Below, piece by piece: positions 1 through 35,015 of a DNA stretch of 35,888 nt. Origin of the DNA: Paraphysomonas bandaiensis (Eukaryota > Protista > Chrysophyceae); contig CBFFRP010000450.1 of NCBI GenBank assembly GCA_965644295.1, forward strand, positions 1 through 35,888. Direction: 5' to 3'. The position numbers and the translations under genes were made by a program. The notes under the pieces are model-generated. The model ran no database searches. It saw only the letters and a program-made list of their open reading frames with translations, and was not told where the DNA came from. The stretch's first letter is position 1; each line of letters opens with the position of its first letter.

Positions 1-1678
1 ACAAATGCCTGGTTATCTTCGCCTTGGCACACCATTTACACAGGGGTTTCTTGCAACTCTTCTCCTTTGCCTTCGAAAGGTGATGTCGTTGTAGTCCTGA
101 TCCTCTGAATAACATGTGTCGGTGAGCTTCTAATAACTTCGATTTCGAGACATGTCCAGTACGCTCATGTAAGCGATCCAACGCATCTTGTCCTGTATTA
201 TCCGACAAATTTACCTCCTCCATCTGATTGCACATAGACACATTTGGCAGATTTAACACCTCCATCAAGTCCACATACGGCATTCCTCCATGCTCATCGT
301 ACTCTCCAGTCAACACCTCGTTTCCAGAGTCCAATTCCACGATTTTAGGCTTTCGAAGCAGTTGTAATCCGTATCCCATTGATCTCAGCATTCCTCCTGA
401 CACAATGTTCTTCACCGCTTCTTCACTAACTCTGATGTCTCTCCATTCCCCGAATGTACCAGTTCCCTGTGTCTCCAATTGAGAACCCTTTCTAGTTAGT
501 TGGATTGCCCCAAACTCAGGAGTAAATGACTCCAGTGCAATTTTATCCTTTACTATAAACAGTCTTTTACTTGCACAACTGTCCAGATATACACGAGGTT
601 CTTCCGACGTATCCACCGATAGCAAAACCTCTTCTCCAAACATATTCGCTTCATCATCCGACGACTCTCCGTCGTTGACGTATTTCTTCCATTCTGTCTC
701 GAATTTCCTGTTCGATTTTCGAGGATTCTCATTATCCGGGTTTTTTATGTTCTTCCGTTTTTTCGACTTGCACTGTCGGGCTTTATGACTAAAATCTCCA
801 CAGATATGACAACCAGTATAATCCTTTGATCCTGGCTGCTGCACACTCTTCGAAGCCTTTTCCTTTGTCTTCCCTTTTCTTTTGAACTTATCCATTTTTC
901 TTTGTCGTTCCTTAGCATAACAATTCGCTGCTACATGTCCCTTCTTCCGACAAAATGAACAAACCACTGGCTCCTTCGACGCCGTAAAATTGATCTCTTC
1001 AGATTTGTCTCCCTTTAGTTTCTTCAGCTGCGTCATAGCCTCGTCATACTCTTCACAAGCCTCTTTCACCGAATCAAATGTAGTTGTTGCTTTAGGCATC
1101 ATCGCTACCGACATCCATAAATCATGTAATTCCTCTATCTGCAGCGCTGCTTTTATCTTTGCTAATTTACTTGCCTCTGTCTGCGGTTGTCCCAATTTTA
1201 TGAGCTTCTGGATTATACCGTTCAGTCGATCTACCCCAACAGACACCTTTTCCCCCGGCCTTATTTTGAACGAATGGTATTCTGCCGTAGTCTTCTCCAA
1301 TACAGTCCCAATCTCGCCTCTGAACCTATCAACCAGTGTCTGAAGGAGCTCACTGGATAACACCTCCTTAGCAGGATCATCAGCAGGTAAAATTGCCTTC
1401 CCCTCCAAATATTGATTGGCTACCTCCAACACATCAGGGTCATGCTCGCAAGCCTCCCAAATAGTACTAACACAGGTATCATTACGCTCTCTCCATGACT
1501 CTAAATTCCTTCCTCCGGCTGGCGGGTCCTCCAAGCCAAGATGGTTTCGGTTTTTCTTCATTAGATGCATCTTGATTTTTCTCGCTGAATAGTCTGCTTG
1601 GTTCTTGTCAAACCGTAGCTTCTTGTCATCTTCCCCATCCCTACAACTAGCATTCGCTACCATAACAGAAGTTGACAT
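1..1678 (-). mobile_element. Ty1/copia LTR retrotransposon gag-pol ORF (5' part; runs off the window edge)
   Basis: ATG at 1678 (MSTSVMVANAS...). The same frame carries two CCHC knuckles (CSFCRKKGHVAANC ~920-961; CHICGDFSHKARQC ~770-811), an aspartic protease motif (RVYLDSCAS ~570-598) and the integrase Zn finger (LHERTGH...CKWC, ~28-170). Order gag-PR-IN is copia-type. Absent from the ORF track, consistent with no stop before position 1. Confidence 0.93.
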
Positions 1679-1751
1679 TATTTGCTAAGGTTTACTATTC
1701 TCAACTGATAAGATGAAATTATAAACATTACATGATAAAGAACCTAAGTTG

Positions 1752-8097: not shown

Positions 8098-10101
8098 TTA
8101 TACTTCGTACGTGAGCGCCCCCCTAATAATGGCGGCAGCTACCTTACGCCTATACTGTGGAATGTCTGATTGCCGAAACGAATCCAGAGGAAGGTCGTCC
8201 GACAAAATGTCCGCGTACATGGTAGAAAACATCCCACAGTCAACACCATTGGACTGTTGCGGCAGCTTTACATGTTTAAAGTCAACCCCAGCTTCAGTGG
8301 TCCACTCTCCCGGGTCCATCTTTATCTTTTTCTTGTCCATCGCCTCATCTACAAAGTACCGCACCATTGTAGATAGGTACCTACAAATACTATTACCTCA
8401 TATACTGTAACACTACTCTTAAGTTCACCTGTTTCCTCTTCCCCCAAATGAATCCAGATACACAATATGCCGTTTTTGCACATATGCAACCATCATAGTC
8501 CAGTGTGTATTAGATATGTTCACAGGAATAAAAACTTTCTCTTTCTCGAATATATCAAACTTTTTGGTCCACCTTTGTATACAACGATAATCAGTGCACA
8601 ACATGGAAATGGCTTACGTATATCGACCTGCGGACGAGGTTATAAGAATATCCTCCATTCTCCATAAGTCTGTCGATAAAGAAAGAGTTGAAGTAGTGGG
8701 ATGATCTCATATTCGGATTCTTAGCACATTGACTAGAGTTTCGCTCCATAAGAAGTTGCATATAGAAGTTAATTACCTCATCATTCAGCCAAGTATCTGT
8801 TAGACAGCAAACCCGAATTAGCACCACCACGAAATATGAACACCAAGAAAGACACTAGCGTGGGTGAAATCATACCAAAGTACAGAGAACTTATGTCAGG
8901 TAAATAACATATACTGGATCGTACTTGGCAATAGACAAGACAGTTTCAGCCTTGTAATAGGTATCTTGAACTTCTCGATGATCACGGTATCATCATGGGG
9001 GGAAGAAAGGGCATTATCCACTGCGATTTCGTCTTCATTACTCAGGGGAGCTCGACGCTGCTGAACCAAACGATGAATACGGTCTACATCCGCACCTATT
9101 GTGGTCTGGTCAATGTCATCATCAACCTCCATGCTGGACTCTGACGAGCTGCGTTGCAGAGAGCTTTGCTCCATCATGTCGTCCACTCGGTCGACGACCG
9201 ACTCGTCCAGAGGAACCGTGGCGCTTGTGTGAGGGGAGTATGCTTGATATGACCTAGCCATAGGTTCGGTTAATTGAGACAAAGTACTCGCTAAATTTGT
9301 CAGACGAGAGTCTAAAGTGGCATCCACTGTGAATGAGGTGTTCTTATCTCGTGAAGTAGCAGAGTACTTCGAAGTCATTGATGTTCTTCCAGTGGCTGCG
9401 ACTCGCTTATGTGCTATGTAGTCTTGTCTGTCCTCCCTCGAAAGCTGAGAAAGCAAAAGACGTAGATATGCCTCTTTATCTCTAACTTGCCTCTGCGAGT
9501 CCTCCAGGGATTTCGCACTAGATCGCTCCTGATCACATATATGTCGCCATTTTCTCTCTCTACCGGACTGTTGCAAACGCTCCATGAATTCATCCCATGT
9601 GACCCAATCGTCGTGCGAATAAGAATGATTAAGAGATTTAATTGTCTTGATCAACTGCATACGTTCAAATGGTTTAAATAATATATAGAGAGACTCCTTA
9701 TCACACAGGTGACCGATGAGATGGGAAAGACAGCACACTCTTCCTTGACTAACCTCGTCGAAACCGATACGCAGGAACTCCCTGACAGGATTGGAAATAT
9801 ACAGAGCCTGTCCCTCAGTGTTGTCAGACAAAGAAAACGGACGGTCGTTAGTTCGAACAACAGCCCCTCCATGAGCACGAGATGGGGGCGCCATGACATA
9901 TGTTTGAGGAGATGGATAGGCTCTCCCGTAGCTGTGATTATGATTGTAACGATGGTGGGAAGATACACTACTGCGCTGCATATGAGCACTACTCGATATT
10001 GGGGAGATACTATACGTATACGAGCGAGCGCTGGATGCAGAGGGAAGACTCAACCGCCTCTGCTGTATGGGAGACATGTCGTGTGAATACACACGCTGCA
10101 T
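8098..10101 (-). CDS. Ulp1/SENP-family SUMO protease (peptidase C48); exons 10101-8925, 8796-8628, 8572-8429, 8380-8098
   Basis: Spliced domain: WLNDEVINFYM...YFNSFF...RWTKKFDIFEKEKVFIPVNISNTHW...YLDS...PQQSNGVDCGMF, with the His/Asp/Cys triad intact. Start codon uncertain. Confidence 0.92.
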
Positions 10102-10361
10102 GCTCTCTGTAATGAATATAGAGGCTCTTGTTTATGTATAAACCACACTCAGCTAATGCATCCTGAAGAGACACACTTCGCTCTCATAACATAACTCTGA
10201 TTGGTTCCTCATTGAGCTTCATGCTTCATGCCTCCACCGCATTGCTGCACTGTATGTGCACGATACGTACTTATGCTATGGGGAGTTTTTTTGGATGTAC
10301 ACCAGTGTATGCCTGGTATATGGGACACGGTATACTACAATACTACGATGTAGTACTAAGT

Positions 10362-12621: not shown

Positions 12622-14862
12622 ATGAGCGAGGTGATGGATATGGATATGGAGGATATACGTGAATTGTTGAGGTACGTCCAGTGACATGATCTGACTGCCT
12701 GTTGGCTAACATCACTCTGAAGCGGCATTAGTGACATTGATGGTGATGATGACTGTATTGATGATATCGACATCAAGGAGTTTGATTTTAATGATGTGGT
12801 AATGAACGACATTCCGCCCGCTGGTGCGCTCATGGGCTCTACTCTGTCTCCTGATTCCGTTGCTGGTCATCCCATGTCAGGTGAAGATGAAGAGCGTTGT
12901 GACGATGCTTACAGTGACACCGATGCGAGTGATCTTGATATTGCTGTAAAAATTCCTTCATTGAGTGGCACACAGACAGTTAAGGGAGAAAACAACACCC
13001 AGTCTGATACTATCATAGAAATGGCAATGCAACAGGCAATTGAGGCACTCAAAGCGCGAAAGGACGCTCCGTGTTATAAGATGTTCATGGACTGCACTGA
13101 CCCTAACGAACTAGTGTCAGTTCTTTTTACCCTTCCTGGTGCAAAGGATAAGCGCTACACAGTTAAAAAAACTTATATTAAGTGCTTCGAAATATTTCCA
13201 TGGTTTCATTTGCCTTCAGACACTAAGCGTTTCAGACAGAACATCTCACAGAGTGGTGATATGGCGAATATTATGCAGGCACTGAAGTATTTTTGGACTG
13301 AAGATTTTTCAGACGAAAATTTCAATGACTTGAATAGGTGCTTCCGAAACATTATGAAGAAAGGAGAAAAAGTAAAATTCTTAACTTCAATTAGAGATGC
13401 TAGGGTCGTAATGGTGAGCTGCATGTCATCGAGTAAGTGTGTAGTATAGGTTTCTGGATATGTTGATAATATGCCGTAGATACTACGAATCAATCTTTGG
13501 AAAGTGTTCAAGAAGTGGTTGCTGATCATGGACGACGATTGGATAGTGTTGAGGGTAGACTGAATGATATCGAAGACGGTGCCTCTGCATTTGAAAATTC
13601 AAGTAAACGACCTCGTCGTGGTGGTGATCGAGCACAATTCATGAGAGTCCGTCCGAGATGTAGAGAAAATATGCAGTGTTGGTGTACACCAGGTATGAAT
13701 TTAATATATGTATTGAACACATTCTTTCTCTATGCTACGTGGAAAACAACATCATGGACACTATAATTCGATATAAGATATACTCGTTTTATTTATTTTA
13801 CAGGGAGGGTTTTTGGCATTTATACTGATGGAATAGGACCTCTACTTCCGTCCAGCACTACTTTCAGACGACACCAGCTATCAGGCGTTGTTGTGTATTC
13901 AACTTGCCCCGATATCATTGAGGATCACGTGGATCCGAATATTTCTGACGACTATGTCCCAGTAGTCATGGTAGGCAAAAAAAATTGAAAACCCTCTGAA
14001 TGTGAATTCTTTTTGTTTTTTCCTGCATCAGGTTGGAAAAGCATCAGTTGTGTTGGATAACCCAAAAGACTACGTAACACTTCTACAGAATTGTGATTCG
14101 GCATTTGATGTGTACGTAAATGAAAGAGGAAAGGTGAGACTAAAGCGGCTTAATTCGCAATGGAAATGCGGCGAGGTGCGATTTGGCCGGGTAGAAGCTG
14201 ATAGCAATACTTGTTTTGATGAAAATGGATTGCCATGGTTTCAGGGCGTTAAAGGTGGTGTGAGTGTTACTGTTGAGTCGTCAGGTATTCTGCCATACAA
14301 ATTACATGATTTCTTGGTTTAATTTTAATTAGGCTCCGAAATGGATATTCAGCGAAGATGTAATGGAAAAATTCCACTGTTTCTTAAGACAGTGATGTCG
14401 ACTGTAATTGGAAAGAAAGCTGTGCATCGATTGGAAGGGAAGCCTTCGTCGAAATCTAAAAGACGGTCCGCGAATGCGGACATGCCTCGGAGCCTGCTAT
14501 CAATCTCTGGCAATACTGATGCTGAAATGGACTTGTTGAAGTCAGAATTAGATAATATCTATTTGTCGGTTAATGAGGACGGTACTCGTAGTGTTTCTTT
14601 TGTCCCGGGACATTTAGGAATGACTTTCCGGTACGATGTGGATTCGAAATGTATCCATGTGGGAAAGGTATTGCCCGATATGCAGGCGGAAGTTGGTGGT
14701 GTAAGAGCTGGCGACATAGTTCTTGCCATTGGATCTAAGAAAGGTCTAAAGGGTAATATATCAGACAGAGCTGAGTTTCAAGAGTACTTAAACGTTATGA
14801 AGAGCGAGGATCGCCCATTAAAAATGACGTTTCAAATGCCAGCTGAAGTATTGGTATCTTAA
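12622..14862 (+). CDS. Uncharacterised ~640-aa protein: acidic N-terminus, helical region, coiled coil, Peptidase G2-like domain, C-terminal PDZ; exons 12622-12671, 12723-13432, 13480-13692, 13804-13970, 14032-14284, 14333-14862
   Basis: Five GT-AG introns join four listed ORFs plus two unlisted exons into one frame. PDZ signature: SVSFVPGHLGMTF...VGKVLPDMQAEVGGVRAGDIVLAIG...RPLKMTF. G2-like motifs: GDRAQF, PGRVFGI, VYSTCP, YVPVVMVGKASV. Confidence 0.8.
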
Positions 14863-16696: not shown

Positions 16697-17760
16697 CTAC
16701 GCGCAGCCATGGTTCTGAGAATTTTTGCGCTGTGCCCTCCTTCTCCTCAATTCATTGGCCCACGAAGAAACTTCGGGGTGCAAAAAACAGTCAGAAGTCG
16801 AAGTAAAAAACTCTTCCAGGTCTACTGCGGCTGAAGTGTCCGCGGAAATGTTTGAATTATCTGCTTTATGCGCAGTCGAAGAGCTGTGGGGTTCTAAAAA
16901 ATCTATAGGTGTTACACCAGTTGGCATGCTTTTCTGAGGATTCGATGCAGCAGCTTGCTCAATAGAAGCCTGCTCATATTCATCTGCTTGAATAATCATC
17001 TCAAGTTTATCTAACTGGTGAGCAATTTCCGCCTCTATACTAGCGCAGTCTTCATACTCGAGCCACAGTGAAAGAATTTCCCGAGAAACAGGGTTATCTC
17101 CTATATTAGCGGTTATACTGCGCATTGCTTCCTACAAAAAGAGTATGAGCGGGGTATAGTGCAAGACACAAAAGACAGGATACGATTATACAGTGGTAGG
17201 CACATATCACTCATTGCCTATGAAACTTACCTCCTCCATTCTTCTCTTCTCATCTTTAGTTATCTTGCAGTGAGGAGTGAAGTCACCGATCAATGATTCA
17301 GCTAGATCATGGACCATACACACTGCGCACAAGTCAGTCACAACAATAAGTGCTTATATTCACACATGATACATGAGGAGCATGAGGATAACTGTAACTA
17401 TAAACCGTTTCGTAACTGTATGTAACTAGTGTAGCATGGCTTACTTTTCATTAGCTTATCTTTGTCCACACGACTGTCAGTGATCATGAGGGCCATCATT
17501 GACATCCTAGTAACAGATATTCAGATATGTTATCGCTATCAATGAAATACAACACACACACACACAGCACCTGTACATATGATCCGCTATGCTCTCTGGT
17601 TGAGGGATGTTGTTGCGCACCCATCCGGCCCTCTTCGTCGTCTTTAACTGAAAGAAACAAACATAACAATCGAAACATACTTCAGATGAATGCACACCTT
17701 CCCTACAACCTCCAAAAAACCAAGAACATTAGACGGGAAAATACATGATGAAGAAGCCAT
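16697..17760 (-). CDS. HDDC2: HD-domain 5'-deoxynucleotidase (HDDC2/YBR242W family); exons 17760-17698, 17647-17571, 17506-17445, 17322-17231, 17131-16697
   Basis: Spliced: [10 protein letters not shown]...[11 protein letters not shown]...[17 protein letters not shown]...EYE...[15 protein letters not shown]. All four introns are GT-AG and in frame. Confidence 0.92.
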
Positions 17761-17823
17761 TATGATATGCTGCCACTCTCAAGGACCTTCCACTGCTATT
17801 AACCACAGCCCTCCACATATATA

Positions 17824-18095
17824 TACATACATACATACATACATACATACATACATACATACATACATACATACATACATACATACATACATACATACAT
17901 ACATACATACATACATACATACATACATACATACATACATACATACATACATACATACATACATACATACATACATACATACATACATACATACATACAT
18001 ACATACATACATACATACATACATACATACATACATACATACATACATACATACATACATACATACATACATACATACATACATACATACATACA

Positions 18096-18131
<36 letters not shown>

Positions 18132-18150
18132 TACATACATACATACATAC
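17824..18150. repeat. (ACAT)n microsatellite, ~80 units
   Basis: Near-perfect TACA array with one (AT) interruption near 18125. Confidence 0.99.
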
Positions 18151-18337
18151 TGTACACAGGTACGCAGGTACAGCAGTACATATAGTGTTTCTGGATGATT
18201 GGGTGTATTCCATGTTCACTTGGTAGGAATTGTACTACTGGTATGTACTGTATGCCTATACTCGTATGTGCGTATGTTAGAGGAGTCGTCCAGTGTATCA
18301 CTATTAAGCCACCAAACCACATATGTACTAGCCCCCC

Positions 18338-21300
18338 ATGGAAGAAAAGGAGTGTCGGGTGTGTCGCGAGGGTCCCGAAGACGGTCATCCCCTCTACGCC
18401 CCGTGTCTGTGTAACGGCAGCATCCTGTATTGCCATCAAGACTGTCTCGAGGGATGGCTACAGCACAGTCAGAAGGACTCCTGTGAGTTATGCGGTGCAA
18501 AGTATATATTCCGACCGAAGTATGCGGACGATATGCCGGATGTTATCCCACTCACGTGTTTCGTGTCGGGCACAGTGTCGTATGTGCTCAATAAGGTGTG
18601 TCCTTTTGTGGGCAGAGTGCTCCTTGCTGCGGTATGTTGGCTAGCGTTGATGCCGATGGCGACAAGTGTGATGTATCGTTGGTTCATGTTTCCAAGTTTC
18701 ACTGTTATGATTGATTTCAGTTTCTCGAATTGGAAATTTGATGTGGCTTTTTTATGGAATGATATTGTAACTGGAATTCTGTTAACTGGTCTTGTCGGAC
18801 TCTCATTCATTATTCTGGTATGCGTTACCATTTACACGTAATGTTATGGGGTCTAATTTTTGCAGTAGATGTCATTTGCAGATTTTTTGAGAAGCTATTG
18901 GTTGATCAATCAACGTAGACGTAACCGGCGTGCCCGTGTGCGAAATGCAAACAGGCAGGTTCCCGCCCAATTCGCTGCCCAAGTAGACGAACTGGATCAA
19001 AGACAGCAGGAATTCGCAGCGCGTAATCTCAACCCTGACCTGGATGCTCCCCTTCCAATGGCGAGAAGAGTTGACGAAGCGGATGGTGATGTACGCGAGC
19101 CTCAACAAGATGCTACTAATGGACATTTGAACCAGCAAATACCTGCCGACACACATGGTGCTGTTGGAAATGATCAAGGTAATGACGAGAACGTTGGTGG
19201 ACTGGAGGAGAGACGAGATGATGATGAAGATGCTGATTCTGATGTAGAAGGTGCCATACAGGATGAATTAGTTGATTTGAACGATGAAGAATTAGCAGCA
19301 ATCCTCAACTTGTTGCCTGACGACGTAGACGACAATATGAACGCAGAAGAGAATAATGCACCTGCTAATGATGAAAACCGACGTGCTCAAGCGGATATCG
19401 AAGTTCACATAAATATATATGAGGTGCTTGGGCTGCGAGGTCCACAATTCGCTGTCGTGCGATATACTCTCTGGGTTATTGCGTTCAATGTGTGCTGCAT
19501 GCTGGTGGGCATGTTTATTCCATCTTGTCTGGGAGATGTGTTCATATTGCTTATCAAGCCGTATTGTATGCTATTCATAAAATTTGTGGGATCAATATTG
19601 CCTCCACATGTCGTTGAATCGCTCTTGCATACATGGAGTTTATTGGTAACTCCATCTGCCCCTGGTACGATAATTCGGTTGTGTGACCTTTTAGTTGCTC
19701 TCATTGGGTATTCTGGTGGAGCTGTCGTAGTTTACCTGCTCAGTCACATAGGCAATGGCATGAAGTATTTTATGTCAAACCGACTTACGCATACGACGTC
19801 AATATTTTTTTCCACAGTTTCCGCACTCAAGGACATCATCAAGATCGGGGTTTTACTGGGAGTCCGTATATTCGTAGTCCCTTGCGTTATCGGTAAGCAA
19901 TATAACTACTTTAAGATGTTGACAAGGCTTTTCGCTTATTATTGCAGCTATATTTACGTTCGTTATATAATATAAATTTTATATAGGTTGTATGGTGTTA
20001 TGGTGCGCCAACATCATCATTCAGTTCCCAATTGACAGCGCCCTTGTGTTGGCAGGCAATTACATAGTCAGTGCTATTGCAGTCTCTTGGGGTGTTGGTA
20101 TTGCCCATATGCTCTGTGCTACAATTGCCATATTGCAGCTGAGAGAAGTATTACATCCAGAGCTTTTGGCCCCATACATTCGCCCTCAGGAGTCTCAGGC
20201 AGACATGCTGACATCATTGCTAATGGATTCGCTGTCAGTTCAGTTCCGTCGACTGGTAGTCTCATTTCTGGTGTATGCGATACTGATTATGGTGTTTGTT
20301 TGGACTCCTGTTGTTGGGCTTAAAGTATTACTCGATCTTGGAAATCCGGTTAACTTGCATGTCTGGTATATTGTTCCAGAAATACAAGTACCACTGGAGG
20401 TGGCTGTACTACATACCGTATTCCTAATGATGCTAGAGAAGCATAAGGATACCATTGGACATGTGGAGCACTACGGACTGCTTTATTTAGCAACAAAGCT
20501 CGGGATGAATCGATATCTTCTTCCCTATACTGCTAAGCGGATTGAAGTAAGTATATATATGTCCGGCTGGGTTGGGTGTGAACTCTTGTAATACATTTCA
20601 TTTAGTCGGATGACGAGCGGGATCGTGCTCTTCGCGAGAAAAAAGAAATTGTGAAGATACAGGGGGAAGTAGAAGCAATTGTAGGTCAGCCCATGTTCCG
20701 CCCTCCAGCAGGATGGGATGCACGCACAAGGGTATCTCCGGTAATGACCCGTGTGATTTTCGTAGTGCTGAACATGATATGTGGTGTCATTACTTAAATT
20801 AGCTTATGAGTATTTTTTTGTAGACGCGTTGGTCGTGGAATGCTTCTCATGCTACAGAACTCGAGTTGTCTGTTGCTCCGCGCACGTATCCGAGTTTTTG
20901 GATCCTGCGATTATTTCTTATGTTAATCGTATGCTGGCTGGTGGTTGTCGTTGCTTCTTTCACGATAGCTGTCTTGCCCCTAAGTGTTGGGCGTTTGGTT
21001 GCCTATCTACTTCTTGTTCCGCATTCCTACATACATGACCCAGTTTGTATTTTGGTGGGCTATGCCGCAATCTCGACATCGAGACGGTATCTTCAGTCAG
21101 TGCACTCCTGTGTAGGCGTTTTGAACATGCCGCTTCTGTCGTTGGATTTGTCTACATTGGCATCTGGTACTGGATTTTATTGCTTTATTAATAACGTACT
21201 GACTTTGTATGCAGGGGCTTTTGGCTTGTTGGTATGGGTAGTTGCTTTCCCATACTGTGTTGGGCTTGCTTATTTCATGATAGTTTACCCATATACATGT

Positions 21301-22020
21301 AACCCAGCGGATGAAATACTATATTTTTCCGTGGGAATGTCTCTCGCTGATCATTTGCGATGTTTGTTTCTCGGGTCAATGTTAGTGAACTGGATATCGA
21401 TTCTTATCTGTAGTGGAGCGATTGACCGCATTCTCACGAAACTGGGCTACTTGCCTCTGTTCGACAACTGGACGTATGCGGTAAACACCTCGTGGAGCTC
21501 TATTGTTGATCCTACTGCATCCAACGATAGTCGAATTTCTGCCGTGCGATCTGCGATTTGTAGTTTTGACAGATTAGTGGTGTCTCCTATTGCCCTACCC
21601 CATATATACTCCATGTTAACTATCATGTTGCTGGAACGAGGAAAGTTATACTTGACGCCAGTAGATCCTACCCAGTACACAGGAGTATTTCAGCTAATTG
21701 CAGACACCATAGTACACGCACGTAGTCCTGTCGGGAAGTATCTAATGTGGGCATATGCTCTGTATTTATTTGGGACATTCGTTTCGAAGCCGGTCTTATA
21801 CTGGTGCCAATGGTACTACAATTCTATCAAGGACGAAAACTATTTAGTAGGAATGGAGTTGCAGAACTCCAATCAGGTAAGCAATGTTGCCGACTACATT
21901 TTCCCGGAATTTATAATTTTGTTTTAGGGTGCCAAGGCTATGGAACATGCAGACGAAGTACTACGAGCGTCAGCGGGTGGCTCTGCAGATGAAGCAGTAC
22001 AAACGCCAACGGGAGATTAA
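18338..22020 (+). CDS. MARCHF6: RING-CH E3 ubiquitin ligase MARCH6/DOA10; exons 18338-18817, 18869-19892, 19987-20546, 20606-20740, 20824-21876 (probable 48-nt intron at 21167-21214), 21928-22020
   Basis: N-terminal RINGv CRVCR...PCLCNGSILYCHQDCLEGWL...CELC, many TM segments, TD-domain motifs (SFADFLR, LREVLHP) and C-terminal IKDENYLVGMELQN. Confidence 0.92.
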
Positions 22021-23440
22021 GTACATGTACATGTAGTTTGTAATTATCAGCGGGCTCTCGTCGCTGCATAATAATATAGGAGATTTAATATTTGTTGTCT
22101 CAAGATATATTATGTAAACGAGAAGAGAGAAGAAGTATGCCTTTTTCACTCTCTAAACTTTGCTGGGGGACGTTTTCTCCTTAATAATTTACTTTGATTA
22201 GTTTAAAATTGTTTGCAGTCCCGAAGTACAACATGTTATTTGTAAGGTGTAAGGAAATATACAATATACTAGGCTACGTTCCATGGTGTGCGCTGATGAG
22301 TGCTATAACAAGTAAATGAAGAAGTGATGGTTATGAAGTCTACTATTTACTATTCGACCTAGTCGAAGTAGAATGTAGAGTTACTTAGCCACACCATTTT
22401 CGGTGTATATCCCAGTCAAGTAGTTGAAAACCGAAGCCATTAATTAATTACGAATTCAAGTTAAAGAACTACAGAGTTGACTTTGTGTTTACAGTATTTA
22501 CCTTGACAGGAGTAAAAAAATCACTCCAACTTGGTAACATATATACATATATTACTCATCATGTAATGAGTACAGACGTACAGACATACAAACATTGCAT
22601 ACATGCAATACATCACATTCCCGCTTCGTAATCAAATGAGAATTGGGAATTTCTCATGACCAGCCAAATTTCACAACCGCAGCTTGCAGACAAGAGCAAT
22701 ATAGGGTCTTACGCTTGATTTCTAGGGGACCTCCTGAACAACATACATACCTGCAGTAATATACAGTTATTAGTACTCTACTAGTATGCATAAGTACAAT
22801 ATAACGCCTATCATGCGCTGCAGTTCTGAGGGCCTGGATGCACAACAGCACAGGCGATACAGGTCACAACCACTGCAGTGGAGAGGCCTCAGAGGTCCAC
22901 TGGAACATCAGCAGACTGTAGAGAGACTGTCAGTGTTCCATCTAGTGACAGAGATATAGCATTGGGGTCCTATCCTTCAACACGACACACTCCTCATGCA
23001 TGATACTGCATGACTAACGGTCTCCACTGCACGACACACCTGCACACTTTAATGATGGTGTTTTCACGAATATGTCATTTTTTTGCCCTGAAAACCCCCT
23101 TTTTTTAGAAAAAACGCTCTGCGTTGCGGTGTATTCGATGTATGGTAAACTCCAGCATGAATTCCAGCCAAGTCTACTACACTTCCTACTGGATGTACTC
23201 TGTGCTATGGAGGATGTATGCGAGTGTGTGGGTGTATATTACGACTACGACAGTAGTCTATGATTATGTGCAGCAGTGTGCCAGTGCTTGTATGTATACG
23301 TATATATATATGTGTGTGTATATATGGATCTGTGTGCCCTGAGAGTATCGGACCGCATCAGCTCAGATCACATCAGCTCAGTGTCCAGTCAACTCTCTAC
23401 CTGTCAGCTCATATAACTCGAACATAAATCTACATAAAAC

Positions 23441-24672
23441 ATGCCACAAAAAAATAGATGTGGTGTGTTAAAGTCTCTGCTCGGTGTGAGTGTGTTGGGT
23501 GCGCTTATGTCCATAGCTCTTAATGTTGATTCCACTGTAACAGTTGTCACATTTTTTCTAGCTACATACACATCATGGAGCTACAATTCCTCCCCTCTTT
23601 ATCTTAATTACTTGAAGAGAAAGATGGAGAAGCTCCCTGAAGTTGAACCGATGCCTCTGCCTGAGTTATCTGTGTCTAATTTCTCACGAGAAGAGCTCAT
23701 GCGTGTCTCCAATGGGCTCAGAATACCTGTAGTTATCCGTGGAGCTCTGAAAGATAGTGCTGCGGTAACTAAATGGAGCCGAGAATATTTTCTAGAAAAC
23801 TATGCGACGGAAAGTGTTGTCGTTCGTGAAGTGATTGCTGGTGGTGATGGTAGTGATGAGAGTACCATGGTTGTTCGTGTACAAGGGCGGACCATTGAGG
23901 AATACTACAAGATGATGGATAAAGGGCGCAACGTCTCAATGATTGCGTCATCCAGTATATTTCATCGGAGGCCTGAATTTCGCGGAGATATGCGGGCTGT
24001 TATGGAGGACGACTTGGTTGGCCCCAATGGTGAAGAAATTATTGCACTGCAGTTTTTCGCTACCCCAGGAGGTAGAACGTATTATCATTCGGAGATAGGC
24101 AACAATGTATTTCGTCAAATCGTTGGGCAGAAGCGATGGACAGTGATCAGCCCGGAGTACAATTATTTGCTTTGCCCAAAACCAGTGATATCGGGGACCT
24201 CTGTGAATCCAGATTGTTTGATGCAAAACACCACTCACCATCAGCGAGATGAGCACATGAAGCATATTCCCCGTTATACCGCTCTATTGAACCCAGGGGA
24301 TATATTTATCAATGCTCCTTGGTGGTGGCACGATGTGCTGTCTATTGGAGATCTCTCAGCTCCTCAGATCTCCGTTGCGGGCCGTATGAAGAATTTGAAA
24401 GCCACTTTCCTTAACTCCCCGATGAATACTTTCGTTGCAGGTGTCTAGATATGTTTCTGCAGATGTATATATGCTTATCCCGCTGTTGATAAATTGTATA
24501 TATGTTGTCTGCTGTATTCTCACATATTGTTGCTCTAGTTTTAACCAAGGTTCTCTCTGGCGAAAAACACAACGACGAAACGTTTGAGCTTGATTTAGAG
24601 GTTAACATTATTGACTCATGGAGAAGATGGTGCGAAGCCCAGGGTAGATTAGACTGTATCACACCAGTTTGA
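23441..24672 (+). CDS. JmjC (cupin-like) 2OG/Fe oxygenase with N-terminal hydrophobic anchor; exons 23441-24440, 24539-24672 (~377 aa)
   Basis: PVVIRG...KWS..YF, TYYHSE, QIVGQKRW, LNPGDIFINAPWWWHDV. Hydrophobic residues ~9-45. Confidence 0.88.
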
Positions 24673-24867: not shown

Positions 24868-25891
24868 TTATTATTAGCAATAGGCGCTAAAAACCTGCAC
24901 CAACTTAGAAGCATTCATAAAATATTCCCTCTCGGGCTTTGTTCCGAGGGCACGCCGTCTATGTGATAGGCCTCTTTAGTCCGCATCTGCACCGCCTGAC
25001 ATTCTAGATAGGCACGGAAGAGTGCAGTACAGTGGAGAATGACAGTGCTGCTGACATTGCAAGAGTTTCGTATGTATAGGCGTTGAGGCCACAGGTGTAC
25101 TGCGAGCTGTGGTGCCGTGAGGTGTAGGATTTTGGTTTGTCTGTGACCCCAATTGTCCTTGGGTGGGAGCCATACAATTGCGGCTCCTCCGTTGTGGGAA
25201 TTGGCTGTGTGTGGGTGTCGCCGAGCAGATGAGCAGGGGTTAGGTGTGTACGTGTGAAGGAGCCATCCGTGAATATGTTTTTTTGTAGGCGTACTTGTGA
25301 TCGTTGAACATTGGAGCTGTGATTGGACTTTGTCAATAGTAGCTCGGAAGTGTGGCGTGGCTGGGGAGGGAGAGGCTGTAGTCTGATGCCTACTTTTTGC
25401 CCCCATTGTACCAGGCTGGTGATATACATGTCGACGTCTTGGGGGGGGGGTGCTCATAGCGTTGTAAGAGCGATGTGGCCGCACTCTTGGGCTGTCCTCC
25501 GAGTGCGAGGGCTCATTGAAGAGTATATGCCATTTCTGAGTGTGGGCGTGGGTTGAAAATTTGCGCAGTCCAAGCCCTTTATATTTTGTGGGAAGGTGGA
25601 TAAGATTCGTGGGATATCCATGGGGGAGACGGAGTATGTCCCTAGCGGCCTTCGCGAGTAGTTTGTCTATGTCGATGTATATGGCATGTGTCCAGGATGC
25701 TTTGTTTGTGGTGGCCTTGTACAGTAGGGTCAGGAGTATTTGTGTGTTGAGGACGAGTAGCTTGCAATCAGGTGTCGCGCTGGGCAGAACAATATCTGCT
25801 GACTATATATGCGGCTCACGTTAGTTTCTCGGAGAAATATCTCCGGTACTTATCCCCCAGAACACCACGAAAAGGTGCAAGTCTGACTTTG
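24868..25891 (-). mobile_element. Degenerate non-LTR retrotransposon derivative (RT thumb + RNase H remnants) fused to repeat copy 3
   Basis: Minus strand 25769-25540: CKLLVLNTQIL...LY...IDKLLAKAARDILRLPHGYPTNLIHLPTKYKGLGL (LINE RT thumb). Frameshifted RNase H: IFTDGSF / NGGAAIV / NAYTYETLAMSAAL / ECQAV. Ends in a (TAA)-like tail. 25781-25891 matches 2401-2514. Confidence 0.8.
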
Positions 25892-28571: not shown

Positions 28572-29776
28572 ATGGCAATAGTCCTTACAGTATCTGTATC
28601 TATGATGCTCCTCGCAACTCTTTCTCATGCAAGTCGGTTGTATTTTACTAACGACACTGCTGCGCTTGAGTCGGCATGGGCGCAGTATAAACACGACTAT
28701 AAGAAGAGTTATCAGAGCACAGAAGAAGACCGAATGCGTTTCAAAATATTCACTCAGAACCTCCAGATTATTGATGGTAGGTGGATTCGTGTTTAATTGA
28801 CCAGCGCTTATGTATATATATTCGACTCAGCTCGCAACGAAGCAGAGACCGGAACAGCGACTTATGGAATAAATAAATTTGCTGATTTAAGTCCTGAGGA
28901 AATTCAGAAGTACTATATGAATGCTGTTCCCGCTTCTAATGTCTCGGAAACGAAGGATACAGTACATTATGTGGAACCATATTCTGGTGCTGAAAGTTTT
29001 GTGGATTGGACGGGTGAGTATTGTCAGTTGCGTCGGCCGTAGAATATATAAACAAAAAATTCTTCTCAGGCATATACACTACTCCTGTTAAAGATCAGGG
29101 ATATTGTGGGTAAGTTACGCTAATATTCCCTGTATGTTTTTAGTTGTAGCTATGCACCGTCGTTCACCTCTCAATGTTATGTCTTTATGCTCTTTATAAC
29201 AGGTCATGTTGGGCATTTTCTGCTACCGAGCAGATTGAATCGGACGCTATGCGCCAATTGGGCTCTTCCTACATTCTGTCAGTGAACCAAATGCTTCAGT
29301 GCGCGCTCAAGGGTGGTGCACCGTGTCGTGGCGGTTGGACGGAGGTCGGGTATGAGTATGTCCGTCGAGAAGGTGGACTCGAAACAGAGGAGGACTACCC
29401 CTATCAGGACCCACACATGAATACATGTGAATCGAATGCCCGCAAAGAGGTTATTGGGGTACGGAAATATACTACAATTTACGGTGAAGAGAACATGGCG
29501 GCTTACGTCAAGTCCACAGGACCGCTCTCAGTCTGTCTATCTGCCACTGGATGGGAGTTCTATCATGGTGGGATAGTGGAGACTTGCCCTAAATATGTGA
29601 ACCATTGTGTACAAGCTGTCGGAGTCGATGACAGTAAAGTTGGAGGGTTCTGGAAGGTTCGCAACAGTTACGGGCCTGATTGGGGAGAATCGGGCTACAT
29701 CAGACTTGCGTACGGTCAGAATACTTGTTTCATTACTCGTGACCCAACCTATACTGAAACGTTTTTCGTAGAATAA
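28572..29776 (+). CDS. Papain-family (C1A) cathepsin L-like preproprotease; exons 28572-28776, 28831-29013, 29070-29109, 29203-29776
   Basis: Signal peptide, I29 prodomain with ERFNIN-like (EDRMRFKIFTQNLQIIDARN) and GINKFAD motifs, spliced TPVKDQGYCGSCWAF, NHCV, VRNSYG. Confidence 0.95.
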
Positions 29777-30604: not shown

Positions 30605-33600
30605 ATGCGAGATAGCCCTGATTTAGACACCTTCTCCCCCCCAACAAGAGCATTCTATGAGCGAGTTAAAGCGAAGCTCGCTCTGTCTGTCTGCTTCTCT
30701 GTGTGTGCGTTGGCATTAATCGGATTCACATCATCAGATTCAGGACGATCAAACTATTACGATATACTGAAATCTCATCAGGTGAACGATGACATGGAGG
30801 ACGCCTACAACGCACTCTCATCTGGTTATGGATTCTCTGGTTTTTGTAATTTTGTAGGGTTTTGTTTGTTGTTGATTGCTGCTGTGTATTACTCTCCTTT
30901 ACTGTTCGGGTATATCGGCACTGTATAATATACGCATGCGCTCATTAACAGATTTATGTTTTAACAGATCACATCGCGAGAGTGATATCATTATTCACCC
31001 TCGAGACATATCTATTGCTAATGAAGAAGCGGAGGATGTGGAGGGATATGCGGCGTCTGCTATGGATAACATTTTCGGATATGTTAACGACACTTTCGGA
31101 GAGAAACTTTCAGCTATATTTATAAATGAAGATGCCGAAGAAGATACTGATGCACTTCTTCTACTTGCTACACTTGCACTATCAAAGTTGGGTATAACCT
31201 TGGCTGTTGACATTAACTGGAGCGCATTCGAAACAGTATTCGGATGGACGAGCAACATTAGTCTGGTTATAGCTGATGTACCGGATGTCAGTCCATTTGT
31301 AGTGAAAACGGTGGTATTTTCCGGATTGCTGCTGCTTCAACCAGCGTGTTACGCACGAATGTGGTGGTTGTCTAAAGAGCATCAAAAGTTAATTGTCGAC
31401 CATTTCTCGTCCATGTTTGTCCGTGTGGAATTGAAACCATACGATGCCTGTTTTACGCCTCTTATTTGCATACTATTGGCATTGTTTTTCATTATTTTCA
31501 TCCCTTCTTATTCTGTGGGCAAACACATGGCATCTGGATTTGCCTTTATTCTATTTGGATTGCCTGGGGCATATCTTTTGGTTGTGAATCTTGCTCGGAA
31601 GAGTGTGTGGCAGTATGTTGACCTACGTTATGCAGATGTTGTGAAGCGGCGACAATATGAGGATCTATCGCTACGTGAAGGCTCCTATTTGTTGTTTATA
31701 TTTGTGGCCTCATACAGTTTTATTATGAATTTCTTTATTGAATATATGGCCACTTGGGATACGCTATCCGGTGCACAGAGGGCGTTTCTTGTGATTGGTT
31801 TCATGGTTTATTCCACGATTCCTTTGGGTTTCATTGCACACGTTATTACTGCAGTGAATGCTGACCGTACATTTAGGATGTTTCGCGCGCAGTTAGTCAC
31901 CCCGTTTAACGACAAGAATCTTTACATGAAGATCGTTCTTCTGATCGAGTCATTGTTTTTCAGCTTATGTATGATAGCATTTAGTCCTGGTCCATTGGGT
32001 CAGCTAACTGGTGGATTTATCATTGCTGTTATATTTTTGGTCTATACGATGTACGCCCGCCCTTTCGACGACCCAATGGAAGATGTATCTGACATAATAT
32101 CTCGCGGTTCTGCTTGTTTTACTGTTATGTTGGGGCTGATTGCTGCGTCTTCATCCTCTGTGTCATCAGATGCGATGTCAGTATTTCTTATCATTAATTC
32201 TCTGCTGTGCTGGGCATGGTTTTTGTATGCTCTTGATCTTAGAGATATGGTTCTAAACAGGTTCTTTTTACTACTTCAGATGTACGCGCAGAGCAAGGCA
32301 GTTCATTACACGAAAGACACAATTCCCCTATTGAGCGAGTCTCGTATCAAGAAACTAACGTCGTCACCGATTGAGTTTCATGTATTATCGGCGGTTCAGC
32401 GGATTTATTTCGCAACCCTGCGCAAAGACGTGTTTTTTTCGGGTTCTCGTATAAAAGAGCTGTCCGATATTGGTGTTACATGGCTAGATCTTTACCAGAC
32501 TGGGTTCGATGTAACATCACTTTTGGCACTGGGGTTCACAGTGGAGGAACTTATGGCAGTTGATGCCCAACTGGATGATATGGGAGACAGATCGGATATT
32601 CAGGGACTTTACGAGAGAGCTTATGCTGATAAAATTGCAGCATGTGGAAAAAATCATGGCGAAAGTTTGAAGCTTTTGTATACCTTGGGCATGTTTTACA
32701 AGGATATTGGAGAACACAACCGTGCAATGGAACATCTCACGGACTGCCTTGAGTCCCAAAATAAAGAAATTGGAGAATTTGAAGATGATACGCTACGGAC
32801 AAGACAGAGTATTGGGGAGTACTATACTTTTCTCCGTCGGCCTGGTGATGGTGTTCCTCTTCTTCAAGCTGTGTATGAAGCACGTAAAAAAGTATCTGTT
32901 GACGCCCCTGAAACTTTGGATAGTATGCGAGCACTAGCCAAGGCACTATCAGCTGATGGTCGCGTTGTTGAAGCTCGTGAACTTCTTGAAGAACGACTGA
33001 GAATTACCGTGCAAACCGCCATAGGAGAGAAACTTCGCGTTGATCACCCGAATACGCTCCAGTCAAGACTGGATCTTGCACTCTGCTTAGTCGAGTGTGG
33101 GAAATACCGTGCAGTTGAAGAGCTGAATCTGCATACGGTGATGAACCGTCAGAAAACAATGCATGGATCTCATAACAAGAACACATTGGATTTAATGAGT
33201 CAGTATGCTACTCTTCTTTCGAAGATGGGACATCATAAGGAGGCTTCGCGTCTACAAGCAGAGATTGTGTATGAGCGGGAGTGTACTCTGGGCCCAGAAC
33301 ACACAACCACATTCACCAGCTGTTTTGCCCTCGCTGAGACCTATATCGAGCTCGGAATGACGAAAGAGCTAACTGCACTTGACATTGAGTCACGACTTGT
33401 TCGTCAGGAACAGACGCTGGGTAAGACCCATCCTACCACACTCTCATCGACACTAAAAGTGGCTGGTTTGTATTACACTATGAGCAAGTACGACGATGCT
33501 TTATCGCTATTCAGAAAGTGCCATGCAGTGCGAAAAGATAAATTAGGGGAACGACACGAGCTTGTACTCAATGTCTCCAACAATATTGCGGCAACGTTAG

Positions 33601-35015
33601 ATTCGATGGGATTGACGGATGAATCCAAGACTATGTATGAAGAAACTCTTGAGATACTGAGAAGCACTGTAGGAGAACATCATGTGACCACAGCTGGCGT
33701 GATGTTAAATCTTGGTCAACAGAGACAACGCACTGGCGATTTCAAGGATGCCAAGCGGTTGTACGAGTATGTCTATCAAGTTGGTATGGAGTCTTTCGGC
33801 GAAACCCATCCGCGTACTCTGCTTGCACAAGATTTCCTTGGATGCTTAGAACTTGTTCAAGAAAATTACCAAAAAGCATGTGATATACTTGAAAGCTGTT
33901 ACGCTCTCCGGATAAAAGTTTATGACGAATGTTACCCTGCCTGCCTTTCCTGCATGGAAAATATTGCAAGCTGTAAACGACAATTAGGAAAGCTGGACGA
34001 AGCATCCAATCTATTTACCCGTATATGCCAACTGTATCTTGAAAATTATGGTGAGCGACACTTGGATACAATTCGAGCTCATGCAGGCTATGCAATTCTA
34101 TTGGCGGACATGGGCCGGGCTGGTGCAGGGCTGCCCATTATGAAAAAGTGTATCTGGGATATGCAAGCCATTGCTGGAAAGAAGCATTACCTTGTTTTTG
34201 AGTACATGGGTAGTGCAGGGTATATCCTTGCACATATGCGAAGAAACGAAGAAGGTTTGGTTTATACTAACCAGGCGCTGGATGGAATGAGAGAACTTTA
34301 CGGAGATGACCATTTTCAGACCAAATCACTATACGCGCGCAAGGCGTATTTACTACAACAGCTCGGCCGTCATGTGGAAGCACAGCAAGCCAGTGCCCTT
34401 TCAGGGTCGCAGGCTCAACCCACTACTGCACCAGATGTGGAGTCAGGTCATGCAAGTTCGAGTAACCCTATGCACACCACATCTGTGACAGGTGGGGGAG
34501 AGCTTGCTCAAGCAGCTGAGATGATGAGAGGACTAGGGCAGGTTTTATCAGCCATACAGCATCCACATACTACTTCCGCAGGAAGTATGTCGAATGCTGT
34601 GCAAGATCCTGTAGATATTGCCAAGCAGTGCTGGGCGCAAGGGCAATATCAACAAGCTATATCAATGATGGATCGGGCTTTTGAATTAAGGTCATCCCAA
34701 TATGGGGAGGTTTCTGAACCTGCGATTGCGGTATTGGCGGACAAAGCAATGTACTTGTACTCTCTTGGTATGCTCAATGAATCACACTCTGAGCATGTGC
34801 GCGTGATCCAGCTGATGGTGCTGCTACAAGGATCCGATCACGAGGGGACTATGCAAACATTAAAGGCCATTCAGGAATTGTACACCGCGAAAGGAATGGT
34901 GTTTGATGATCCTACGATGCAGACAGTGGACGGAATGGTTGTGGCGGTAGAAGAGGAAGACAAAAGCGCAGAAAAAGAAGATGAGGCAAGTGGAACGACG
35001 AAAAACGAAGAATAA
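30605..35015 (+). CDS. ~1450-aa polytopic membrane protein (TRP/FLC-like TM bundle) with a large C-terminal TPR array; exons 30605-30909, 30968-35015
   Basis: A GT-AG intron at 30910-30967 joins the 107-aa and 1379-aa ORFs in frame. About 12 hydrophobic segments, including LVTPFNDK..YMK and ARPFDDPMED. About 42-aa TPRs with G..HP.TL motifs (kinesin-light-chain/NPHP3 type). Confidence 0.88.

Follow-up and report, generated by a model that had tools for sequence, protein, structure and literature searches.

A possible family of trimeric nuclear regulators in protists, with a Peptidase G2-like domain lacking the phage glutamate

The window analysed here, that is, the whole stretch of 35,888 nt of Paraphysomonas bandaiensis DNA, carries at 12622..14862 of the + strand a six-exon gene, which is spliced and transcribed and encodes a protein of 640 aa. 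Fold prediction and profile comparison indicate that the middle domain of this protein is very probably a remote relative of Peptidase G2 by common descent. To judge from sequences and models, the gene is likely a member of a hitherto undescribed family, whose proteins would act as trimeric nuclear regulators. Our proposal for the protein itself, a homotrimeric nuclear regulator with a phage-derived, non-cleaving Peptidase G2-type domain, is tentative and comes close to an even chance.

Results

Structure and transcription of the gene

The exons (12622-12671, 12723-13432, 13480-13692, 13804-13970, 14032-14284 and 14333-14862) are separated by five GT-AG introns of 51, 47, 111, 61 and 48 nt, and they join into one open frame. 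Four of the 24 listed sequencing runs were compared with the gene, three of them being RNA or likely RNA (X9, X13 and X17). Introns 1 and 2 are skipped exactly in X9 and X13, intron 4 in X17, and intron 5 in all three runs. Intron 3 has no listed joint and is marked solely by loose ends in X9 and X13, where exon-4 letters stand behind 13693 and exon-3 letters before 13801. Thus, the six-exon splicing proposed in the sequence-only reading is confirmed by exact joints for four introns and supported by loose ends for the remaining one; this covers the junctions of exons 3-5, for which comparison with RNA-seq had been advised. In run X3, whose kind is not on record, there are no joints, and one contig reads through introns 2-5. 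A transcript-derived protein (P0007; source label taxon 36769, Paraphysomonas) is identical to the gene model at 160/160 positions of the middle domain, 86/86 of the linker and 92/92 of the PDZ-like region.

RNA contigs differ from the window at 12994 (A>T, resulting in N108Y) and at 14409 (T>C), most likely as strain alleles. Outside the window there is a close paralogue (P0009 and P0006), which likewise has a PDZ, and a loose end at 13270, present in three runs, falls in sequence common to both genes. The proteins concerned are P0001, P0003-P0006 and P0009; four transcript proteins are mosaics of the gene and the paralogue, being either assembly chimeras or products of gene conversion.

Within the window, the family HMM found no second copy. 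An open frame at 2-1684 (-), which extends past the window edge, contains two CCHC knuckles as well as protease- and pre-integrase-like motifs, and resembles the start of a Ty1/copia gag-pol. Fragments at 24915-25802 (-) resemble the reverse transcriptase end and RNase H of a non-LTR retroelement, and a long four-base microsatellite at 17690-18226 opens several spurious frames. Ordinary-looking eukaryotic genes, to judge by their motifs, encode a Ulp1-like protease (8896-10131, -), a MARCH6-like RING-CH ligase (18332-21927, -), a JmjC protein (23438-24448, -), a papain-like protease (29150-29776, +) and a multi-pass, TPR-containing membrane protein (30876-35015, +).

Domain layout and relatives

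When the middle domain was searched by phmmer against 1.84 billion representatives, 49 hits at E <= 0.001 were obtained. The family set of 48 rows consists of 44 of these and four sequences from other searches; most are unnamed metagenomic frames, and the rows are related to each other, hence counts among them do not represent independent events. Five hits (P0048, P0051 and P0055-P0057), all of them long and matching weakly and repeatedly, were excluded as chance on the reading of P0048. Also rejected as relatives were matches in metagenome contigs (L043-L045, false positives), one in viral contigs (L057), which is an unrelated protein with a chance GGDRACYF, and one phage match with E 1. Most family frames stop at, or read through, the V-M-V that marks intron 4 of the gene, and this intron-like read-through suggests that the family is eukaryotic.

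The family-wide order is acidic N-terminus, conserved domain, RhxxhE coil, basic patch, GG-D, G2-like domain and variable tail. In the gene, all features lying on the + strand, the acidic N-terminus covers aa 1-93 (12622..12951), and among the first 80 aa of P0001 it has 25 D/E against 3 K/R. Of the 12 family rows examined, 10 show no fewer than 13 D/E and no more than 5 K/R in the same stretch. This segment is likely disordered and activation-domain-like. It is followed by a conserved, mostly helical domain of about 145 aa (the N-domain, aa ~108-252, 12994..13428), which is doubled in some relatives (P0010, P0017 and P0047), and by a coiled coil at aa 260-287 (13497..13580). Next come the NLS-like basic patch KRPRR (13605..13619), directly before GG-D, and the G2-like domain at aa 303-462 (13626..14277), interrupted by introns 3 and 4. 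A basic, Ser-rich linker (aa 463-548, 14278..14583, with intron 5 inside) leads to a PDZ-like domain at aa ~549-634 (14584..14841). The acidic N-terminus, the heptad stretch, GGDRAQF at 13620-13640, the division of the middle domain over exons 3-5 and the basic linker had all been recognised from the bare sequence, and each was recovered in the spliced protein.

Three PDZ models match the same stretch, and the PDZ match is weak, lying below the curated cut-offs (PF00595, 21.4 vs 23.2 bits; PF17820, 20.9 vs 27 bits; E ~3e-4). Tails behind the G2-like domain vary among relatives and often consist of a coiled coil or PDZ, PDZ being seen only in the gene and one paralogue (P0006). As far as the sequences tell, the core of the family is the acidic N-terminus, the N-domain, the RhxxhE coil, the NLS-like patch and the G2-like domain, and the PDZ is a local add-on. 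The earlier view that the G2-like domain is partnered by a PDZ holds for the PDZ-like match in this protein; the partner in the family core is instead the helical N-domain with the NLS-like patch.

The existence of many paralogue-like copies would agree with a quite different origin, in which the family would stem from a mobile element or an endogenous virus, for example as an ORF1-like trimer that chaperones nucleic acid or as a remnant of a polinton-like-virus fibre, and would not be a host regulator. L1 ORF1p also trimerises via tandem RhxxhE motifs (accessible text of PMC5940361), and polinton-like viruses carry phage chaperones, though of the S74 type and not in ochrophytes, according to the available part of PMC12220804. 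This origin is opposed by the five spliced introns, one at a position apparently common to the family (the shared V-M-V), by the absence of an element-like long frame within ~2.5 kb on either side of the gene, and by the absence of true relatives from the viral contigs and phages searched. We regard it as highly improbable, the last in our ranking.

Relationship of the middle domain to Peptidase G2

The AlphaFold2 model of the middle domain has a pLDDT of 66 and a pTM of 0.52, with only ~10 rows covering the second half. Its best fold match among 48,161 chains is 3gqh_A, the D4 domain of phi29 gp12 (Z 6.6, below the tool's own threshold of Z 8; rmsd 3.7; 11% identity over 98 aligned residues), the next row having Z 4.2. 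Model positions 8..167 align with 692..852 of 3gqh_A, which places D303 on D692, where the released fragment 3GQH begins. Foldseek on PDB and a second-pass look gave no G2 match for this model; of the model and structure search suggested earlier, the fold ranking returned gp12 D4 and the Foldseek part none on PDB. BFVD yielded rows annotated as preneck appendage or tail fibre, all of them weak (best E 0.013).

A sequence bridge is provided by bacterial proteins. When 401 genomes from a single bacterial phylum were searched with PF11962, four gave matches, which led to a short-G2 subfamily with 2241 homologues; the best 120 of these, chosen by similarity to four Glu-bearing seeds, were used, and 57 of them are labelled PF11962. 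In hhalign, the family profile matched this set with a score of 31.0 (E 2.1e-4, probability 45.6%) over 77 columns starting with Asp on Asp, compared with 13.1 +/- 2.7 (maximum 22.0) for 60 column shuffles and 15.1 for the reversed profile. The bacterial set itself matches phi29-type G2 at 97%. In the reciprocal direction, 120 bacterial proteins were searched with the family HMM, and the best domain lay inside G2 in 115 of the 118 that yielded one, although G2 makes up ~19% of the protein length; the maximum was 18.6 bits vs -1.7 for reversed decoys. The divergent member P0058 scored 22.6 bits on the bacterial G2 HMM.

On the other hand, the Pfam comparison proposed for exons 3-5 came out negative: Peptidase_G2 (PF11962) was absent for the exons, P0001 and P0058, and for the 48 family rows it was absent among the matches listed (25 of 43 families). 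Direct hhalign comparison with phi29-type G2 (single gp12, and 31 phi29-type sequences) gave no match, nor were G2 matches present in the PHROGs, NCBIfam, PDB-sequence and ESM Atlas searches. The missing Pfam match, together with the Z value below 8 and the hhalign probability, could be explained by an analogous small beta fold, for example that of capsid decoration proteins, instead of common descent; capsid cement and herpesvirus triplex chains indeed fill many of rows 3 to 20 of the fold search (Z 2.8-4.1). Analogy would hardly account for the agreement of structure and sequence tests on one family and on where the domain starts, for the reciprocal localisation or for the score of P0058, and we find it very improbable. 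Homology is favoured since the fold and sequence tests, each of them modest, agree on both family and register. The G2-like fold and register proposed earlier are therefore upheld, gp12 D4 heading the fold ranking and the short-G2 bridge exceeding all 60 shuffles, and aa 303-462 are predicted to adopt the G2 fold. By its sequences and models, the family fails as a member of the peptidase group, having neither a Pfam match nor the Glu discussed below, though it has the predicted gp12 D4 fold.

Several observations concern G2 domains elsewhere. The bacterial short-G2 subfamily is large (its homologues include L053-L056 and P0067-P0186). A contig titled Streptomyces sp. (L046) encodes a G2 domain 55% identical to that of phi29 gp12, with identity and length as in Bacillus SPbeta-like matches, and is possibly a contamination. 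PDB chain 8h2i_cU, a 1343-aa chain named P22, matches part of gp12 D4 close to the C-terminal end (E 6e-6). We take 8H2I to be a chlorovirus capsid; if it is, giant viruses would offer a possible route of G2 into protists.

Absence of the glutamate

By alignment, fold and profile, DRAQ (13626..13637) is equivalent to D692-F-A-E695 of gp12, with the Glu absent. E695 is reportedly the catalytic residue, as described by Xiang et al. in 2009. The accessible portions of PMC9863714, PMC11476376 and PMC4756867 do not give the catalytic residues of G2. At this position the 48 rows contain C20 G8 Q6 R4 A3 T2 Y2 N1 H1 S1 and E in none (2.61 bits), whereas Glu is found in 120/120 bacterial short G2 sequences, a set biased by its Glu-bearing seeds. 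The absence of Glu, noticed earlier in the gene, is thus a property of the whole family. A specific E-to-Q switch is not: the position drifts through ten residues, and Q accounts for 6 of the 48 rows and for 3 changes on a poorly resolved tree (75 columns, 47 rows).

Uncleaved gp12 (3SUC) reads SDFAQY at the site and the released fragment 3GQH starts with DFAEY; Q therefore fits a non-cleaving state. The prediction of a non-cleaving domain agrees with this in the gene, while its supposed marker, Q, is not the rule of the family, in which C is commonest. Loss of cleavage is the simplest reading of the sequences. The near-invariant D-R-A (43, 46 and 45 of 48 rows) and an acidic/His loop, P-D-x-x-E-x-H-P, conserved together with a W-C, would nevertheless be compatible with altered cleavage chemistry; besides the missing Glu, the possible catalytic residues kept in the family are C, D, S, D, E and H.

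If such chemistry operated, the domain would cut itself at G302/D303 and free an N-terminal trimer, ending in the NLS, from a PDZ-held C-terminal part, as a soluble MYRF-like switch. The nearly invariant GG-D-R-A stretch agrees with the small residue followed by Asp in bacterial G2 (G97 and A22 of 120), the NLS-like patch would form the new C-terminus, and new catalytic groups might come from the loop and the W-C. One relative, P0015, has a membrane-like segment behind the G2-like domain (residues 552-570, hydropathy 2.1), giving it a MYRF-like topology; a clear membrane anchor is absent in 7 of the 8 proteins checked. Given also the drift at the Glu position and the Q in the uncleaved gp12 structure, we consider self-cleavage rather improbable.

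Coiled coil and self-association

In the coil of the gene, RhxxhE occurs twice in tandem, at aa 273-278 and 280-285. Among the 40 family rows with enough upstream sequence (7 shorter rows were excluded), 26 contain RhxxhE at most 40 aa upstream of the domain; the background count is 2 of 265 windows. In the accessible text of PMC5940361, RhxxhE is described as a trimerisation motif. A three-copy model scored 0.53, compared with 0.00 for the best of three controls, with a run agreement of at least 24% and partner pLDDT of at least 32 (32-34); the copy number was imposed and the family alignment was not an input. At the 0.53 mark, calibration gave 21/30 microbial and 17/29 eukaryotic solved self-pairs, 0/23 and 0/30 single chains, and only 1/7 eukaryotic pairs without an older solved relative; the score may reflect a resemblance to coils already solved. 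Contacts are confident in the coil only, and the G2 part was folded without confidence. The model speaks for the coil associating with itself and does not extend this to the G2 domain; since three copies were imposed, it does not separate dimer from trimer. Motif and model taken together, trimer formation is likely. The notion of a trimerisation module thus gains support from the RhxxhE coil, where the confident contacts lie, and not from the G2-like domain.

N-domain and nuclear localisation

The N-domain model is mostly helical and well defined (pLDDT 90.6, pTM 0.83). It has no Foldseek match, its best Z in the fold search is 3.9, and neither search matched it to a known DNA-binding fold; such a missing match does not show a new fold. 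The domain contains IFPWF at 174-178 and conserved R161, K165, R186 and R188, the outer two being located on or beside two short strands. These Arg and Lys residues, taken with the KRPRR patch and the acidic character of the N-terminus, suggest a candidate nucleic-acid-binding domain. The patch KRPRR is likely a nuclear import signal: K[KR]x[KR] is present in the 12 residues before Asp in 27 of 44 family rows (2 left out), vs 3.4% of background windows and 0/120 bacterial G2.

It may be asked whether the non-cleaving G2-like trimer is rather a cytoplasmic or structural scaffold, in line with the scaffold predicted in the sequence-only reading, whose N-domain binds protein or ligand and whose basic patch is not an import signal. 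The lack of a nucleic-acid-binding fold match for the N-domain would suit this, as would the frequent coiled-coil or PDZ tails and the usual service of G2 domains in structural fibres (PMC13317679, in its accessible part). The patch, however, is fixed just before the domain, acidic N-termini accompany conserved Arg in the N-domain, and the maximum 19-residue hydropathy of 0.94 in P0001/P0002 leaves no signal-like or membrane segment. A scaffold is an unlikely alternative in our estimate, to be kept in mind nonetheless.

Discussion

If the protein is a trimeric nuclear regulator, its G2-like domain would nucleate or register the trimer, as D4 does for gp12, and would stay attached for want of the Glu. 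KRPRR would then bring the trimer into the nucleus, where the N-domain may bind nucleic acid through its conserved Arg/Lys and the acidic N-terminus may recruit co-activators. The PDZ, gained in the lineage of the gene, would bind C-termini of partners.

The closest known structure is phi29 gp12 D4 (PF11962; PDB 3GQH and 3SUC; also Dpo31 D4, 28NB), with which the domain shares the predicted fold, strand order and N-terminal register (D303 = D692), as well as placement C-terminal to the region to be trimerised. For D4, a chaperone and trimer role is described in the available part of PMC13317679, as is an ATP-binding pocket, for which that paper cites Xiang et al. 2009. In contrast to the family, gp12 D4 keeps Glu at +3, phi29-type G2 has a long central insertion, and D4 follows a tail spike instead of a coil and basic patch. 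Bacterial short G2 (Bacteroidota and others) is the closest bridge in sequence, with a small residue before Asp and an RhxxhE coil as companion; unlike the family, it retains Glu, lacks the basic patch, and has the coil after the domain (105/120) and never before it (0/120). If dozens of diverged sequences have retained a G2-type domain once the Glu was gone, chaperoning and cutting would be uncoupled in it.

LINE-1 ORF1p is similar in its trimeric coil with two consecutive RhxxhE motifs (PMC5940361, as far as accessible). It differs in that the family protein has no RRM or CTD match, is encoded by an intron-containing host gene and bears a G2-like domain.

The phage chaperones that the accessible literature reports from eukaryotic cells belong to the S74 type, as in MYRF, MrfA, alveolate glycofibrils and polinton-like virus fibres (PMC12220804, bioRxiv 10.1101/2025.09.30.679562). 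No eukaryotic G2 domain was found in the open literature searched. MYRF is a transcription factor that a phage chaperone assembles into trimers, and it carries NLSs as well as an activation region that is disordered (PMC3742443); the likeness of our protein to MYRF and Dictyostelium MrfA is one of logic: disordered N-terminus, regulator domain, NLS and trimerising phage chaperone (accessible parts of PMC3742443 and PMC3828593). The MYRF-like concept put forward earlier stands in this respect, whereas the parts differ. MYRF is self-cleaving and combines an S74 ICA, which bears a Ser-Lys dyad, with an Ndt80 DNA-binding domain and a membrane anchor; no such feature was found in the family protein. 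S74 ICA (PF13884) has no Pfam match in it, the domain mapping to gp12 D4 instead; an Ndt80-type domain has no Pfam match and is absent from the fold-search listings; and P0001/P0002 contain no transmembrane anchor after the G2-like domain. If the N-domain binds DNA, a new class of regulators would exist in abundant bacterivorous flagellates. It is plausible, somewhat short of an even chance, that these proteins form an undescribed family of protist transcription regulators, in which a G2 chaperone domesticated from phage, be it a pseudo-protease trimeriser or a rewired self-cleaving switch, is joined to a novel fold for binding nucleic acids; phage tail-spike assembly machinery would then have been reused independently in nuclear regulation, from parts unrelated to those of MYRF.
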